Source of the DNA: a virus
Taxonomy: Duplodnaviria > Heunggongvirae > Uroviricota > Caudoviricetes
DNA length: 9,925 nt
Virus record (IMG/VR): IMGVR_UViG_2671180338_000006
Location: 1 to 9,925 of that record
Direction: 5' to 3' (one strand)
The notes under the pieces are model-generated. The model had not been told where the DNA came from and did not search any database. It was given only the letters and a program-made list of their open reading frames with translations. The position numbers were made by a program, and so were the translations under genes. This document shows, piece by piece, positions 1 to 9,925 of the stretch (within the stretch, counting starts at the first letter, position 1; each line of letters opens with the position of its first letter).

Positions 1-27
1 CGGTTAATTTATTCAGGGGAAGGCTGT

Positions 28-231
28 ATGGGAAAAGGTGGCGGTAAGGCACACACGCCTCGTGAGGCGAAGGATAATCTCAAATCCACGCAGATGATGA
101 GCGTGATTGATGCGATTGGTGAGGGACTGATAGAAGGTCCGGTGAAGGGACTGCAGAGTATCCTGGTGAACAAAACCCCGCTGACGGACACGGACGGTAA
201 TCCCGTGATACACGGTGTGACGGCGGTCTGA
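28..231 (+). CDS. J: J fragment 1 (N-terminal 67 codons, ends at in-frame TGA)
   Basis: ORF 28..231; the same frame continues to match gpJ immediately after the TGA (RAGEQEQTPPEGFESSG from 232). Confidence 0.6.
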   Translation: MGKGGGKAHTPREAKDNLKSTQMMSVIDAIGEGLIEGPVKGLQSILVNKTPLTDTDGNPVIHGVTAV

Positions 232-300
232 CGCGCCGGGGAGCAGGAGCAGACACCACCGGAAGGCTTTGAGTCCTCCGGTGCTGAAACCGGACTGGGC

Positions 301-2640
<2,340 letters not shown>

Positions 2641-3698
2641 GATAGGGAAAACCCATCTGGCTCAGGAGCTGTGGACGCAGATTGATAACGGTCAGCTTGC
2701 GCCTGACCTGGCTGAAATCAGGACGTCCATTACGGATGTCAGCAATGAAATCACGCAGACTGTCAATAAGAAACTGAAAGACCAGAGTGCGGCAATCCAG
2801 CAGATACAGAAGGTTCAGGTTGATACAAATAATAACCTGAACAGCATGTGGGCTGTGAAGCTGCAGCAGATGCAGGACGGACGCCTTTATATCGCGGGTA
2901 TTGGTGCCGGTATTGAGAACACCCCTGACGGCATGCAGAGTCAGGTGCTGCTGGCGGCGGACAGGATTGCGATGGTTAATCCTGCGAATGGCAACACAAA
3001 ACCGATGTTTGTTGGTCAGGGCGATCAGATATTCATGAACGACGTGTTCCTGAAACGCCTGACGGCCCCCACCATTACCAGCGGTGGAAATCCATCGGCA
3101 TTTTCCCTGACTCCGGACGGAAAGCTGACCGCTAAAAATGCGGATATCAGTGGCAGTGTGAATGCGAACGCCGGGACGCTCAACAATGTCACGGTAAATG
3201 AAAACTGTACGATTAAGGGCATGCTGGAGGCGACTCAGGTCAGAGGTGACTTCGTTAAAGCTGTATCCAAATCATTTCCGAAACAGGCTGGTACGTGGGG
3301 TAACACGGAAACACCAAACGGGACGGTTACAGTCACCATAAGCGATGATCATAACTTTGACCGCCAGATTATTATTCCGCCCATTATTTTTAACGGTATA
3401 GCGTATGACGATCCGGGGAGCGGAAATAACCCAGGAGGCACGCGATACACGGGTTATGGTTTTGAAGTTCGCAAAAACGGCGTATTAATCGCATCCAGAG
3501 AAACTAAAGGTGCCATTCCCGGTAGTTACAGTGCAGTTATTGATATGCCTAGTGGTGGTGGTAGCGTCACTCTGGAGTTTAAGATTTTCCAGAAAGGCAA
3601 TCAGGGGGCAGGCAATATCACCGACTGTACGGTGATTGTGACCAAAAAAGCGGCTTCCGGCATCAGTATTCGTTGAAATATTTATAACCCCAATAAAT

Positions 3699-3722
3699 GG
3701 CGTCAGGAATGACGCCTTTTTT
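3699..3722 (+). terminator. Rho-independent terminator downstream of J (copy 1)
   Basis: Stem ggcgtca, loop ggaa, stem tgacgcc, then tttttt. Confidence 0.7.
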
Positions 3723-3746
3723 ATTGCAGAAAAGCGAGAGGTAATT

Positions 3747-4751
3747 ATGCGTAAAGTTTGTGCAGCCATTTTGTCCGCAGCCATTTGCCTGGCCGTATCC
3801 GGTGCGCCTGCATGGGCGTCTGAACATCAGTCCACGCTGAGCGCGGGGTATCTTCATGCCCGGACCAACGTTCCCGGCAGTGATGATCTGAACGGGATTA
3901 ACGTGAAATACCGTTATGAGTTTACGGANCTGAACAGCATGTGGGCTGTGAAGCTGCAACAGATGAAGGACGGACGCCTTTATATTGCGGGTATCGGTGC
4001 CGGTATTGAGAATACGCCAGCAGGAATGCAGAGTCAGGTGCTGCTGGCGGCAGACAGGATTGCGATGATTAATCCTGCGAATGGCAACACAAAGCCGATG
4101 TTTGTTGGTCAGGGCGATCAGATATTCATGAACGACGTGTTCCTGAAACGCCTGACGGCTCCCACCATTACCAGCGGCGGTAATCCTCCGGCATTTTCCC
4201 TGACACCGGACGGAAAACTGACCGCTAAAAATGCAGATATCAGTGGCAGTGTGAATGCGAACGCCGGGACGCTCAACAATGTCACAATTAATGAGAACTG
4301 TCAGATTAAGGGGAAACTGTCAGCCAACCAGATTGAAGGCGATATAGTCAAAACAGTGGGTAAGGCTTTTCCGCGGGACTCCCGGGCACCGGAGCGGTGG
4401 CCATCAGGGACCATTACCGTCAGGATTTATGACGATCAGCCTTTTGACAGGCAAATTGTTATTCCGGCGGTGGCATTCAGCGGCGCTAAACATGAGCGGG
4501 AGAATAACGATATTTATTCGTCATGCCGCCTGATAGTACGGAAAAACGGTGCTGAAATTTATAACCGTACCGCGCTGGATAATACGCTGATTTACAGTGG
4601 TGTTATTGATATGCCAGCTGGTCGCGGCCACATGACGCTGGAGTTTTCGGTGTCAGCATGGCTGGTGAATAACTGGTATCCCACAGCAAGTATCAGCGAT
4701 TTGCTGGTTGTGGTGATGAAGAAAGCCACCGCAGGCATCAGTATCAGCTGA
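3747..4751 (+). CDS. In-frame fusion ORF: lom 5' fragment (3747-3928, signal peptide plus ~35 residues) joined across N3929 to a second J C-terminal receptor-binding module (3930-4751, allele 2)
   Basis: ORF 3747..4751 (334 aa) starts [28 protein letters not shown]... identical in style to lom at 4819, then after EFT-X continues [25 protein letters not shown]...[45 protein letters not shown]... ending [10 protein letters not shown], which is J C-terminal sequence. May be an assembly chimera. Confidence 0.5.
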
Positions 4752-4770
4752 ATTTTATAACCCATATACG

Positions 4771-4794
4771 GGCGCCAGAAATGGCGCCTTTTTT
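4771..4794 (+). terminator. Rho-independent terminator downstream of the second J module
   Basis: Stem ggcgcca, loop gaaa, stem tggcgcc, then tttttt; paralogous to 3699-3722 with compensatory stem changes. Confidence 0.7.
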
Positions 4795-4818
4795 ATTGCA
4801 GAAAAGCGAGAGGTAATT

Positions 4819-5418
4819 ATGCGTAAAGTTTGTGCAGCCATTTTGTCCGCAGCCATCTGTCTGTCCGTATCCGGTGCGCCTGCATGGGCGTCTGAACATC
4901 AGTCCACACTGAGCGCGGGGTATCTTCATGCCCGTACGAACGCTCCCGGCAGCGATAATCTGAACGGGATTAACGTGAAATACCGTTATGAGTTTACGGA
5001 CGCGCTGGGGCTGATTACGTCCTTCAGTTATGCCAATGCTGAGGATGAGCAAAAAACGCACTACAGCGATACCCGCTGGCATGAAGATTCCGTGCGTAAC
5101 CGCTGGTTCAGCGTGATGGCGGGGCCGTCTGTACGCGTGAATGAATGGTTCAGCGCGTATGCGATGGTGGGTGTGGCTTACAGCCGTGTGTCGACTTTCT
5201 CCGGGGATTATCTCCGCGTAACTGACAACAAGGGGAAAACGCACGATGTGCTGACCGGAAGTGATGACGGTCGCCACAGCAACACGTCTCTGGCGTGGGG
5301 GGCTGGCGTGCAGTTTAACCCGACCGAATCCGTGACCATTGACCTTGCTTATGAAGGTTCCGGTAGTGGTGACTGGCGAACGGATGCATTTATTGTTGGT
5401 ATCGGATACCGTATCTGA
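4819..5418 (+). CDS. lom: Lom-family outer-membrane protein (Ail/Lom/PagC/OmpX-type small beta-barrel), full length
   Basis: ORF 4819..5418 (199 aa). Signal peptide [24 protein letters not shown] with AWA-S cleavage motif; body ([78 protein letters not shown]) matches lambda Lom from memory. gagagg RBS 8 nt upstream of ATG. Position between J and stf as in lambda. Confidence 0.9.
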   Translation: MRKVCAAILSAAICLSVSGAPAWASEHQSTLSAGYLHARTNAPGSDNLNGINVKYRYEFTDALGLITSFSYANAEDEQKTHYSDTRWHEDSVRNRWFSVMAGPSVRVNEWFSAYAMVGVAYSRVSTFSGDYLRVTDNKGKTHDVLTGSDDGRHSNTSLAWGAGVQFNPTESVTIDLAYEGSGSGDWRTDAFIVGIGYRI

Positions 5419-5522
5419 CAACAGACGCCGATTTATCTTCTGTAAATATTGTTATGATACGCAGGTTCATCCACCTTATGGGGTGAACTGCGTTTGAGGA
5501 AACGTAAAGTTACACTGTCCTG

Positions 5523-5557
5523 AAGCCCGTGGCGTCACTGCTGCGGGCTTTTTTTAT
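5523..5557 (+). terminator. Rho-independent terminator downstream of lom, just upstream of stf
   Basis: Stem aagcccg (5523-5529), 14-nt loop, stem cgggctt (5544-5550), running into a T run to 5557. Confidence 0.7.
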
Positions 5558-5569
5558 TGGTGGAAAAGT

Positions 5570-8500
5570 ATGACAGTAAAAATTTCTGGCGTGCTTAAAG
5601 ATGGCACAGGAAAACCAGTACAGAACTGCACCATTGTGCTGAAGGCCAGACGAACCAGCAGCACGATGGTGGTGAACACGGTGGCCTCTGAAAATCCGGA
5701 TGAAGCCGGACGTTACAGCATGGATGTTGAGCATGGTCAGTACAGCGTCACCCTGCTGGTTGAAGGTTTTCCGCCTTCACATGCCGGGACCATTACCGTC
5801 TATGAAGGTTCCAGACCAGGTACGCTGAATGATTTTCTCGGTGCCATGACGGAGGATGATGTCCGACCGGAGGCACTGCGCCGCTTTGAGCAGATGGTGG
5901 AAGAGGTGTCACGTAACGCCTCCGCGGTTGCACAGAATACGGCAGCCGCGAAAAAATCAGCCAGCGAGGCGGCAACTCATGCAACCGATGCTGCAGCCTC
6001 AGCACGTGCCGCCAGCACGTCAGCCGGACAGGCCGCGTCGTCGGCTCAGTCAGCGTCTTCCAGCGCAGGAACGGCATCGACAAAGGCCCGTGAAGCAGCA
6101 AAAAGTGCTGCTGCAGAGTCATCAAAAAGCGCGGCAGCTACCAGCGCCAGTGCCGCGAAAACGTCAGAAACGAATGCCGCAGCATCACAAAAATCGGCAG
6201 CCACTTCTGCATCCACAGCGACCACGAAGGCGTCAGAAGCTGCCACCTCGGCACGGGGTGCGGCGGCCTCAAAAGAGGCAGCGAAATCTTCAGAAACGAA
6301 TGCATCATCAAGTGCCAGTAGTGCAGCTTCCTCGGCAACGGCGGCAGGAAATTCCGCGAAGGCGGCAAAAACGTCCGAGACGAACGCTAAGTCTTCTGAA
6401 ACAGCAGCGGGACAGAGCGCCTCAGCTGCGGCAGGTTCAAAAACAGCGGCTGCATTATCTGCCAGTGCCGCGTCAACAAGTGCCGGGCAGGCCTCAGCCA
6501 GTGCCACCGCCGCCGGAAAATCGGCAGAAAGCGCCGCATCATCCGCTTCAACAGCCACAACGAAGGCTGGCGAAGCCACTGAGCAGGCCACGGCAGCAGC
6601 GAGGTCAGCTTCCGCAGCGAAGACATCCGAAACGAACGCGAAAGCGTCGGAAACCCGTGCAGAATCCTCAAAAACGGCTGCCGCATCGTCCGCCAGTTCG
6701 GCGGCGTCATCGGCATCATCGGCGTCTGCTTCAAAAGATGAGGCGACCAGACAGGCGTCAGCAGCGAAGGGCAGCGCCACGACGGCATCCACGAAGGCGA
6801 CAGAGGCTGCTGGTAGTGCGACGGCAGCAGCTCAGAGCAAAAGTACGGCGGAATCTGCAGCAACGCGCGCTGAGACAGCGGCAAAACGGGCAGAGGATAT
6901 TGCATCCGCCGTGGCGCTGGAGGATGCGAGCACGACGAAAAAGGGGATAGTACAGCTCAGTAGTGCGACTAACAGCACTTCCGAGTCACTGGCGGCAACA
7001 CCAAAAGCCGTTAAGGCCGCGTATGACCTGGCTAACGGGAAATACACCGCACAGGATGCAACGACAGCACAGAAAGGGATAATCCAGCTAAGCAGCGCGA
7101 CCAACAGCACGTCTGAAACGCTGGCGGCAACGCCAAAGGCAGTAAAAGCAGCCAATGACAATGCTGAGAAACGTCTGCAGAAAGATCAGAACGGTGCGGA
7201 TATCCCTGGCAAAGACACCTTTACGAAAAATATTGGTGCCTGCCGTGCCTTCGGTGGGTCAGTAAGCACAACAACAGGAAACTGGACGACTGCACAGTTT
7301 ATCGAGTGGCTGGATTCTCAGGGAGCATTTAACCATCCATACTGGATGTGCAAGGGTTCCTGGTCTTATGGCAATAATAAAATCATTACTGATACTGGCT
7401 GCGGTAATATTCATCTCGCCGGAGCTGTCATTGAAGTAATGGGGATAAAGTCAGCGATGACGATCCGCATTACCACTCCGACCACATCCAGCGGTGGCGG
7501 AACAACCAACGCCCAGTTTACCTATATTAATCACGGAACAGATTATTCACCTGGCTGGCGAAGGGACTATAACTCCAGAAATAAGCCAACGGCATCAGAG
7601 ATCGGGGCGCTACCGTCAGGTGGAACAGCAGTATCATCAGTTAATCTGGCTTCAAAAGGTCGGGTAGCCGCGCTGACAGACAATACGCAGGGGGCAGCAG
7701 GTCTTGAGTTATACGAGGTGTATAACAACGGATATCCAACAGCGTATGGAAATATCATTCACCTGAAAGGGATGACAGCCGTTGGCGAAGGTGAGTTACT
7801 CATCGGCTGGAGTGGTACAAGCGGTGCTCATGCTCCGGCATTTATTCGTTCACGACGGGATACGACCGACGCAAACTGGTCGCCGTGGGCGCAGCTTTAC
7901 ACCTCGGCTCATCCTCCTGCAGAGTTTTATCCAGTCGGTGCACCAATCCCGTGGCCATCAGATACCGTTCCGTCTGGTTATGCCCTGATGCAGGGGCAGA
8001 CTTTTGACAAATCTGCTTACCCGAAACTTGCAGCCGCTTATCCGTCAGGCGTGATCCCTGATATGCGTGGCTGGACGATTAAGGGCAAGCCCGCCAGTGG
8101 TCGTGCCGTATTGTCTCAGGAACAGGATGGCATTAAATCGCACACCCACAGCGCCAGCGCATCCAGTACGGATTTGGGGACGAAAACCACATCGTCGTTT
8201 GATTACGGCACTAAATCCACGAATAACACCGGGGCGCATACGCACAGTCTGAGCGGCTCTACAAGTTCAGCTGGGGCCCACCAACATAGTCAGACTGGGC
8301 CCAGAACGAATAGCGGGAGTCAACCTACTGGAATGTTTCCGGCAGGGAGTACTCAAGTTAGCGGGACTAATCAGGTTGGTATCAGTGGCTCATTAACCAG
8401 TGGCACCTCCCAATGGGTAGGTAAATCATCTTCAGAAGGAAACCATACACACTCACTGTCCGGCACAGCAGCATCTGCGGGTGCACACGCGCATACTGTC

Positions 8501-8629
8501 GGTATTGGTGCTCATACGCACTCTGTTGCGATTGGTTCACATGGACACACCATCACCGTTAACGCTGCTGGTAACGCGGAAAACACCGTCAAAAACATCG
8601 CATTTAACTATATTGTGAGGCTCGCATAA
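5570..8629 (+). CDS. stf: Side tail fibre protein Stf (lambda Stf / T4 gp37-like), intact 1019 aa
   Basis: N-terminus [28 protein letters not shown]...[35 protein letters not shown] and C-terminus ...[31 protein letters not shown] match lambda Stf as recalled; Ala/Ser-rich shaft; HxH-rich distal tip. Stop TAA overlaps the tfa ATG (TAATG). Confidence 0.9.
5900..6900 (+). repeat. Low-complexity Ala/Ser/Thr-rich shaft region of Stf with recurring AKTSETNA-type motifs
   Basis: Motif K(T/S)SETNA occurs at least four times (about 6160, 6285, 6365-6390, 6620). The GC-rich codon periodicity creates long stop-free shadow ORFs in other frames and on the opposite strand. Confidence 0.8.
6938..7160 (+). 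repeat. Two tandem ~30-residue tail-fibre repeats in Stf (KGI[V/I][11 protein letters not shown][S/T][11 protein letters not shown])
   Basis: Copies at about 6938-7028 and 7070-7160, period about 132 nt; near-identical protein, many synonymous nucleotide differences. Confidence 0.8.
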
Positions 8630-9145
8630 TGGCATTCAGAATGAGTGAACAAGCACGGACCATAAAAATTTATAACCTGCTGGCCGGAACTAATGAATTT
8701 ATTGGTGAAGGTGACGCATATATTCCGCCTCATACAGGTCTGCCTGCAAACATCGTGGCATCTCGTTGAAGATCATCGGGGTAAAACGGTTTATGACGTG
8801 GCTTCCGGCGACGCGTTATTTATTTCTGAACTCGGCTCATTACCGGAAAATGTCACCTGGTTATCCCCGGAAGGGGAGTTTCAGAAGTGGAACGGCACAG
8901 CCTGGGTGAAGGATACGGAAGCAGAAAAACTGTTCCGGATCCGGGAGGCGGAAGAAACAAAAAACAGCCTGATGCAGGTAGCCAGTGAGCATATAGCGCC
9001 GCTTCAGGATGCTGTGGATCTGGAGATCGCAACGGAGAAAGAAACCTTGTTGCTGGAAGCCTGGAAAAAGTATCGGGTGTTGCTGAACCGTGTTGATACA
9101 TCAACTGCACCGGATATTGAATGGCCAGTAGCACCTATAGGGTAA
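8629..9145 (+). pseudogene. tfa: Tail fibre assembly protein Tfa (lambda Tfa family), frame-broken by an internal deletion
   Basis: From ATG 8629: [41 protein letters not shown] then out-of-frame residues and TGA at 8767-8769. Tfa similarity resumes in the +1 frame at 8753 ([28 protein letters not shown]...[16 protein letters not shown], stop 9143-9145). About 22 codons of lambda Tfa between GLPAN and SWHLVED are missing. Confidence 0.85.
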
Positions 9146-9894
9146 ATTCGTAATGATTACCTAAATACGTTATTCTTTTGTTAAAAAAGTGATTTTGCTA
9201 TAGGTAGGGAGTATGTTCTTGGATTAAGAATAAAAAATCGCCATGAAAGAGCTTCATGGCGAGTACATAAACGTACAAAATGTGATGAAAGTAGAGTGGC
9301 GTAAGCCACTATATTAAGATATGACAATAGCGAAGAAAAGTAAATAACATTTTATGGACGTTTAATTGTTAATTATAAAAACTAGAGTGCCCGATATTGT
9401 TTATCTTGCTTTAAAATAATGTACTCAAACCAAATTTTTGAGCTAAAAGCTCAAATAATATAAATGCAATAATAATGTTTAATAAGACAATTAGCTTGCT
9501 TTGTATTTTCATTTCGGAATACTGTTAAGTAACTTTGATGACCCTAACAATAGATCGGAATTTTCTTAGAGTCAATGGTCACTGTTTTTGCTTGCAAAGC
9601 AAATGTTTTGGTGGTTATAAGTTGTCTTAATATAGTCACGCATGCAACTTGTTCCATGCGGAGATTAAAGATTGGAATATAACGCGAAGATGGAATTAAA
9701 TTACATTTGCAATAATCAATTTATTATTACTCAATAATTACCGATATTATTATTGTAAATTAATCATTAGAGTGCAAAAAGAAATGTAACGGCAAAATAA
9801 GAGGACGATAGCTGAGAAAAAAGCGTGCTTTCCCAATCTGGGGCAAATCACGTCTGAATGACACCTGAAAACAGGTGGTAGCCTCAAGAAGGCT
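9146..9894. other. AT-rich region with no ORF of 60 aa or more on either strand; possible degraded cargo/moron locus or regulatory region
   Basis: Abrupt compositional shift from the GC-richer tail genes; several short hairpins (ccatgaa-agagc-ttcatgg at 9241-9259; ttgctt-gca-aagcaa about 9586-9600; cgcatg-N10-catgcg at 9639-9660). Confidence 0.5.
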
Positions 9895-9925
9895 GGTGAT
9901 GCTGCCAACTTACTGATTTAGTGTA
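9895..9925 (+). mobile_element. IS1 terminal inverted repeat (first 31 bp of IS1, truncated by the window edge)
   Basis: ggtgatgctgccaacttactgatttagtgta matches the canonical IS1 left end as I recall it (GGTGATGCTGCCAACTTACTGATTTAGTGTATGATGGTG...). Confidence 0.8.

Follow-up and report, generated by a model that had tools for sequence, protein, structure and literature searches.

Organisation of the J locus

The stretch of DNA analysed here, positions 1 to 9,925 of IMG/VR record IMGVR_UViG_2671180338_000006 and referred to as the window throughout (9,925 nucleotides, nt), is filled by a tail region of lambda type on the plus strand, as judged from its open reading frames (ORFs) and Pfam domains. 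The subject is the gene J, whose product gpJ carries the receptor-binding domain (RBD) at its C-terminal end, and of which the 3' part is found twice within the window. Both copies are in direct orientation, the first followed by a truncated and the second by a complete lom gene. The original prediction described them as two sharply divergent alleles of the distal domain of J that share a near-identical proximal segment, and the names allele 1 and allele 2 are kept here for the upstream and the downstream version, respectively.

The only non-ACGT characters in the 9,925 nt, which do not figure in the original prediction, are a run of 44 N at 2462–2505 and one N at 3929. They divide the window into three parts, designated contigs A, B and C (Table 1). 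The gene order J-lom-stf-tfa in the prophage represented by contigs A and C is the normal lambda order, and contig B contains only J sequence and the 5' end of lom. The J stop codons are located at 3674–3676 (allele 1) and 4749–4751 (allele 2). Within the complete lom, the 5' part is a 92–95% identical twin of the truncated lom at 3747–3928 and constitutes repeat family D2.

Table 1. Features of the 9,925-nt window and their coordinates
Feature	Position	Strand	Description
Contig A	1–2461	+	5' 2.4 kb of gpJ, ATG at 28, of a probably defective lambdoid prophage; PF24801, PF13550
Contig A 3' end	2327–2461	+	Repeats at 89% identity as 2506–2640 (start of contig B); repeat family D3
44-N run	2462–2505	.	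Scaffold gap between contigs A and B; flanks non-colinear, overlapping by 135 nt in reference coordinates
Contig B	2506–3928	+	3' part of gpJ (stop at 3676), J-lom spacer, first 182 nt of lom (3747–3928)
A–C bridge stretch	2641–2836	+	196 nt of J; present once in the window, inside contig B
Conserved proximal segment, copy 1	2837–3219	+	End of alpha-helical shaft and central straight fibre (Pfam Phage_Tail_Tip); repeat family D1
Allele 1 RBD (Ig_GpJ_C)	3220–3676	+	Ends at J stop codon; PF12421, 91.5 bits (cut-off 26.2), profile 1–134 of 135
Single N	3929	.	Joins the truncated lom of contig B to mid-J of contig C in the scaffold
Contig C	3930–9925	+	3' end of J, lom, stf, tfa
Conserved proximal segment, copy 2	3930–4312	+	Start of contig C, from the base right after the single N
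Allele 2 RBD (Ig_GpJ_C)	4313–4751	+	C-terminus of the J pseudogene begun in contig A; PF12421, 135.2 bits (cut-off 26.2), profile 1–135 of 135
Complete lom	4819–5418	+	Ail/Lom outer-membrane protein; PF06316, 416 bits
stf	5570–8629	+	Side tail fibre; PF08400, PF03406, PF07484
tfa	8629–9145	+	Tail-fibre assembly, split over two frames; PF02413

Identity pattern and boundaries of the two J copies

A two-changepoint fit to the DNA alignment of 2837–3928 with 3930–5000 divided it into three segments. The left flank (2837–3219 against 3930–4312) is 93.0% identical over 383 nt, the middle segment (3220–3708 against 4313–4780) is 50.9% identical, and the right flank (3709–3928 against 4781–5000), which consists of the J-lom spacer and the 5' end of lom, is 95.5% identical over 221 nt. 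At the protein level the proximal parts of the two copies share 96% identity and the distal parts 44%. The near-identical proximal part and the abrupt divergence that follows are therefore as originally described, and the translations quoted at the time are present in the sequence. The breakpoint itself had been placed at 3190/4283; a sharp drop does exist, but it is located approximately 30 nt (10 codons) downstream, after NENC(T/Q)IKG. A second boundary, absent from the original prediction, lies about 30 nt past the J stop codons, where identity returns. Flanked by conserved sequence at either end, the variable block is a cassette.

An RBD alignment was made that includes lambda J and A8 gpJ, the latter being a natural tip from an E. 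coli prophage (PMC11338833). The motifs FDRQ, IDMP.G and KK..GIS, which had been proposed as anchors kept in both copies, are indeed common to the two of them and were found in lambda J and A8 gpJ as well. The biggest insertions and deletions (indels) are placed between these conserved framework motifs. In the allele 1 RBD the indel-bearing segment is AYDDPGSGNNPGGTRYTGYG, which differs from its allele 2 counterpart.

Domain identity of the two tips

In lambda, the C-terminal part of gpJ comprises an alpha-helical shaft, a beta-prism central straight fibre and an immunoglobulin-like (Ig-like) RBD (PMC11101478). Both distal blocks of the window are, by profile and structure matching, assigned as bona fide C-terminal receptor-binding domains of gpJ. 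Each matches the Ig_GpJ_C profile (Table 1), and PF09327 (Phage_Tail_Tip) is located directly upstream of it in both copies. When compared with solved structures, the lambda J structure 8iyk (residues 860–1131) was matched with E values of 4e-84 for allele 1 and 5e-97 for allele 2, A8 gpJ (9wca) was matched by allele 2 with an E value of 2e-120, and the best match for both alleles was ‘A8 gpJ 713’. The order of straight fibre (PF09327), then Ig-like RBD at the extreme C-terminus, then lom, stf and tfa is the same as for lambda gpJ, and both alleles align over the whole of the lambda RBD (PDB 8IYK, 8XCJ/8XCK, 8XCG).

The conserved segment corresponds approximately to lambda J residues 860 to about 980, i.e. 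the end of the shaft and the straight fibre, and the variable cassette corresponds to the RBD. The conserved/variable boundary falls at about residue 980, where the RBD begins. A boundary of the sort expected of recombination had been anticipated, and its position at the junction of central straight fibre and RBD, with the cassette set in conserved flanks, agrees with that expectation.

Both tips are already catalogued members of a curated family, to which nothing new is added here. The allele 1 tip is 97–99% identical in amino acids (aa) to J of Evi, 2B8, cdtI, 2851, mEp332, mEp460_ev081, ev207 and several Stx2 phages, and the allele 2 tip is 94–97% identical to J of JLK-2012, vB_EcoS-640R1, PhiR55_1 and many Stx2a phages. 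In the deposited phages each tip type ends a single-copy J gene, and the two types never stand next to each other. Of 5,426 complete E. coli genomes, approximately 1,167 contain J-lom sequence that accounts for 80% or more of contig B, and in approximately 3,250 the same threshold is reached for the start of contig C. Two viral contigs from one IMG genome (L034 and L080, both IMGVR_UViG_2537562191) each carry an allele 1 tip at 98%, so the same type of J tip can be present in more than one prophage per genome.

Contig ends at the N characters

According to a repeat search, each of the three families of long direct repeats terminates precisely at an N position. The two copies of D3 (2327–2461 and 2506–2640) lie one on each side of the 44 N, D2 ends at 3928, and copy 2 of D1 starts at 3930. 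The two D3 copies are the same J codons, taken from two different J genes. No inverted repeats of at least 40 nt are contained in the window, the J copies being direct. The first 30 nt of contig B are an exact match to 2327–2356 of contig A, the first 29 nt of contig C an exact match to 2837–2865 of contig B, and the last 43 nt of contig B an exact match to 4958–5000 of contig C. Contig ends that are exact 29–43-nt k-mers of the neighbouring contig are as expected at the repeat forks of a de Bruijn graph. A single N is what some scaffolders insert where a negative gap has been left unresolved.

When placed on the reference prophage of E. coli VR50 (L001), the three contigs overlap rather than run in sequence. 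Contig A occupies 3322–5804, contig B 5670–6383 and, more weakly, again 6663–7071, and contig C extends from 6001 on.

The junction between the truncated lom (lom') and J was also searched for in other genomes. A 121-nt query matched at 15,563 places in 4,362 of the 5,426 complete E. coli genomes, with none of the matches covering both sides of the junction, and a 741-nt junction query was matched only as two permuted pieces of the ordinary J-lom locus. The exact junction pattern gave no hits in GTDB representative genomes and JGI metagenomes, which is consistent with an artefact, although scans of this kind may fail to pair the N of the query with an N in the sequences searched. In the window an ORF of 334 aa (3747–4751) begins at the lom start codon, crosses the single N in frame and continues in mid-J. 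This chimeric ORF is a product of the scaffold join and would be annotated by gene-calling software as a spurious fusion protein.

Relatives without the duplication

The J gene of contig A carries two lesions. A TGG to TGA change (W68*) is located in frame at 229–231, and a 22-bp deletion between CTGAC repeats after 1893 shifts the frame, leaving ORFs at 28–231, at 301–1944 and from 1938 onward. The junction of the 22-bp deletion is private to this J gene and its relatives, and when IMG/VR was searched with it three N-free loci (L083, L084 and L085) and a fourth match (L086) were obtained.

The three N-free relatives contain window 1–2461 and window 3930 onward at 97.8–99.6% identity, L084 having only the 3' 1.1 kb of 1–2461. 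In L083 the contig A part is 99.6% identical, and the A and C parts are separated by exactly 196 nt, of which 194 are identical to the bridge stretch at 2641–2836 of the window. L083 shares both lesions with contig A, the TGA at codon 68 and the 22-bp deletion; as this locus is free of Ns, the two lesions are inherited and not sequencing errors. A single J reading frame continues in L083 from the post-deletion frame through the bridge to the allele 2 C-terminus. Because A, bridge and C are continuous in this relative, contigs A and C together represent one J gene ending in allele 2. The bridge is nearly identical in the two prophages, which would be why it is found in the window only inside contig B. 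An artificial construct of A, bridge and C gives one continuous, ungapped alignment with individual gpJ genes from complete genomes, and contig B is 96.5–98% identical, also in one piece, to gpJ and lom of complete genomes.

The fourth match, L086, is a scaffold that itself contains single Ns. It carries A, bridge and C as far as the 5' end of lom, with 100% identity to window 3930–4877, and after its N there is a second J gene, the 3' end of which matches window 2506–3374 at 99.5%. The presence of this second gene indicates that allele 1 belongs to a separate J gene.

Eighty IMG/VR loci encode allele 1, and 75 of these have no N and one copy each of the proximal segment. More than one proximal copy is found in the other five (L003, L008, L037, L055 and L058), which are also the only ones with single Ns, and each N lies at a non-colinear join. 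In L003 the elements follow one another as they do in the window (allele 1, lom', N, allele 2, lom), yet the join is at the window-equivalent position 4207 instead of 3930, a difference that would be expected if assemblies had broken there but not if the junction had been inherited. Duplicated J segments in IMG/VR coincided with Ns in every case examined, these being the five loci above and L086, whose records stem from drafts of isolate genomes.

Origin of the two J copies

The reading that we favour, with a probability of roughly 0.93, is that the window consists of mis-scaffolded draft contigs from the tail regions of two lambdoid prophages, in which the true path runs from contig A through the bridge to contig C and contig B comes from the second prophage. 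The record would be a draft scaffold of E. coli type in which three short-read contigs have been strung together, and would not correspond to continuous DNA. In the source genome contig A would run via the 196-nt stretch straight into contig C, forming one J gene with the allele 2 RBD followed by lom, stf and tfa. Contig B would be the J end, with the allele 1 RBD, and the lom start of a second prophage, presumably resident in the same cell. It would have been placed between A and C by the scaffolder because it shares near-identical sequence with both. What had been called two distal-domain alleles of J would then be the outcome of comparing two paralogous J genes with a common shaft, spacer and lom 5' end and with different 150-aa Ig-like tip cassettes. 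The part of that description which stands is the existence of two clearly different RBD types (44% protein identity); that they are alleles at one locus does not stand, as the scaffold is joined at N between them. By analogy with the familiar lambdoid mosaic pattern, the tip cassettes may have been swapped by homologous recombination in the conserved flanks, and such recombination would have created the cassette pattern seen here.

Several points weigh against this explanation or limit it. We infer the mis-join from the anatomy of the sequence and from relatives rather than from reads or an assembly graph, and L083 to L086 are other isolates than the source strain. The scans for the exact junction pattern are uninformative with regard to the source record, and the single N at 3929 could in principle be an ambiguous base within genuine sequence. 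Furthermore, the sequence fits either of two sources of contig B, a further prophage resident in the same cell or an additional strain present in the sample.

The latter possibility, a mis-join in which contig B was contributed by a second strain through mixed culture or contamination, is considered unlikely, although it is the alternative that survives best. Nothing in the window ties contig B physically to the same chromosome, and the best complete-genome matches of contigs B (98.0%) and C (99.7%) are different strains. However, in complete genomes the J and lom queries matched at a median of 2 sites and at a maximum of 14, so that several lambdoid prophages per E. coli genome are normal and indeed the rule. 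The independent isolate scaffold L086 holds both the A–C prophage and a J gene ending in contig B sequence (99.5%). A scaffolder also needs read-pair links, which the shared 196-nt and lom segments would provide within one genome.

A genuine tandem arrangement was rejected as highly improbable. It would require that unequal recombination between two prophages had produced J (allele 1)-lom'-J' (allele 2)-lom in one prophage and that the Ns are merely uncalled bases. Direct repeats with flanks of 93–95% identity could support unequal crossing-over, the lom'-J fusion stays in frame across the N, and L003 displays the same order of allele 1, lom', N, allele 2 and lom. Yet the only Ns in the window fall exactly, to the nucleotide, on the two duplication junctions, and none of the 5,426 complete E. 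coli genomes contains the lom'-J junction. Relatives that are free of Ns and share the private lesions connect A to C through the bridge without a duplication. The resemblance to L003 is countered by the join there being at a different position and again at an N. In addition, the second copy begins mid-domain, lacking its own start codon or promoter context, and the window contains no recombinase, invertase or inverted repeat able to use the second cassette. The N junctions, the absence of the junction from complete genomes, the shared-k-mer contig ends and the N-free relatives were decisive in rejecting a real duplication.

Slightly less credible still is that the scaffold order is real in the sense of one prophage holding two directly repeated J 3' cassettes with different tips and a lom fragment between them. 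If such a dual-cassette locus did exist, recombination between the 93–95% identical flanks could swap or delete a tip and change receptor use within a lineage.

The window also differs from known systems that vary tail proteins. The invertible segments of Mu (Gin) and P1 (Cin) are unlike this locus, which is free of inverted repeats of the length given above and whose annotated ORFs (J, lom, stf and tfa) do not include a recombinase. Diversity-generating retroelements differ as well, in that no reverse transcriptase is present among the annotated ORFs of the window. The features that do agree are those of repeat-induced mis-scaffolding in drafts of E. coli with multiple prophages, namely shared-k-mer contig ends and Ns at non-colinear joins.

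Finally, that the distal divergence is noise of sequencing or assembly in a single J gene, an idea to which only the draft quality of the record (Ns, pseudogene lesions) lends anything and which the original prediction had named as fatal to it, is refuted because each block recurs at 94–100% identity in many independent phage and bacterial genomes and both blocks score as intact full-profile PF12421 domains; the pattern is far beyond chance.

Receptor specificity of the tips

Four bottom loops of the lambda RBD insert into LamB (PMC11101478). When placed on lambda, the A8 tip delivers DNA via OmpC instead of LamB, and both A8 and 1A2 gpJ are OmpC binders according to the base-editing paper (PMC11338833). 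Phage phi21 uses LamB natively (phi21 paper), and the J C-terminus of Gifsy-1 is 18% identical to that of lambda (Gifsy-1 paper). A receptor-prediction preprint covers the GpJ of Drexlerviridae, which are other than lambda-type tips, and a paper on Chi sites in lambdoid phages contains no data on receptors. No receptor information was found in the literature on the allele 1 carriers mEp332, mEp460 and PhiR29.

The RBDs of alleles 1 and 2 are only 40% and 43% identical, respectively, to that of lambda, with indels between the framework strands. Neither is closer to lambda J residues ~980–1132 than A8 is (44%). At this level of identity, and with the indels, binding to LamB is not to be assumed for either tip. 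Allele 2 had been thought to look closer to lambda J; the difference between 43% and 40% does not bear this out, and allele 2 was rejected as a lambda-like (LamB) tip.

With respect to A8 gpJ (PDB 9WCA/9WCB), the allele 2 RBD is 67% identical and the allele 1 RBD only 45%. By sequence, allele 2 would be nearest to an OmpC-type tip, yet 67% is too low for the receptor specificity to be transferred. The engineered fusion point of the A8 chimera is located at the conserved motif that marks the natural boundary in the window. Two receptor specificities, as originally proposed, are plausible, and by analogy with lambda each tip probably binds, via its bottom loops, an outer-membrane protein or porin variant other than that of its counterpart. 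Allele 2 is probably not expressed as a functional tip in this genome, because its J gene has a premature stop and a frameshifting 22-bp deletion.

Prophage decay and other features of the window

With its two lesions, the J gene of the A–C prophage is a pseudogene. The tfa gene, with its MAFRMSEQ start at 8629, overlaps the stop codon of stf and encounters a stop after approximately 46 codons, and its Caudo_TAP match continues in another frame (ORF 8693–9145). Compared with E. coli VR50, approximately 63 nt are missing between L001 positions 10790 and 10854. The split of tfa fits a decaying prophage. Given the premature stop and frameshift in J and the division of tfa over two frames, the A–C prophage is probably defective.

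Within stf, an Ala/Ser-rich tract of approximately 340 aa (about 5870–6900) contains imperfect repeats that include AAKTSETNA. An AT skew of up to 0.45 was noted for this tract, together with long spurious ORFs in other frames and on the opposite strand, and a region approximately 97% identical to it is present in VR50. Directly 3' of tfa, at 9200–9925, the GC content falls sharply to 28–37% and no convincing ORF is seen. The sequence at 9130–9925 is 99.9% identical in several complete E. coli genomes, in which only a ‘tail fiber assembly protein’ is annotated under the match.

Implications

What the window contains is ordinary cassette variation of the J tip combined with a scaffolding artefact, both of which are already known. 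Its one unusual trait, the tandem arrangement of two tips, is not real. The finding is principally a caution. Near-identical tail modules of co-resident lambdoid prophages break contigs in J and lom, and the broken pieces are then joined up by scaffolders. This affects draft assemblies of E. coli and Shigella as well as the prophage catalogues, IMG/VR among them, that are built on such drafts. The outcome is false ‘tandem J alleles’, false lom-J fusion ORFs, as at 3747–4751 here, and false truncated genes. Because duplication and N went together every time in this analysis, such duplications should first be checked against the positions of Ns.

The underlying biology is real but established, in that the 150-aa Ig-like J tips of lambdoid phages, bordered by conserved fibre-shaft and J-lom sequence, are interchangeable. 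Natural tips of this family have already been grafted onto lambda, retargeting it from LamB to OmpC (PMC11338833).

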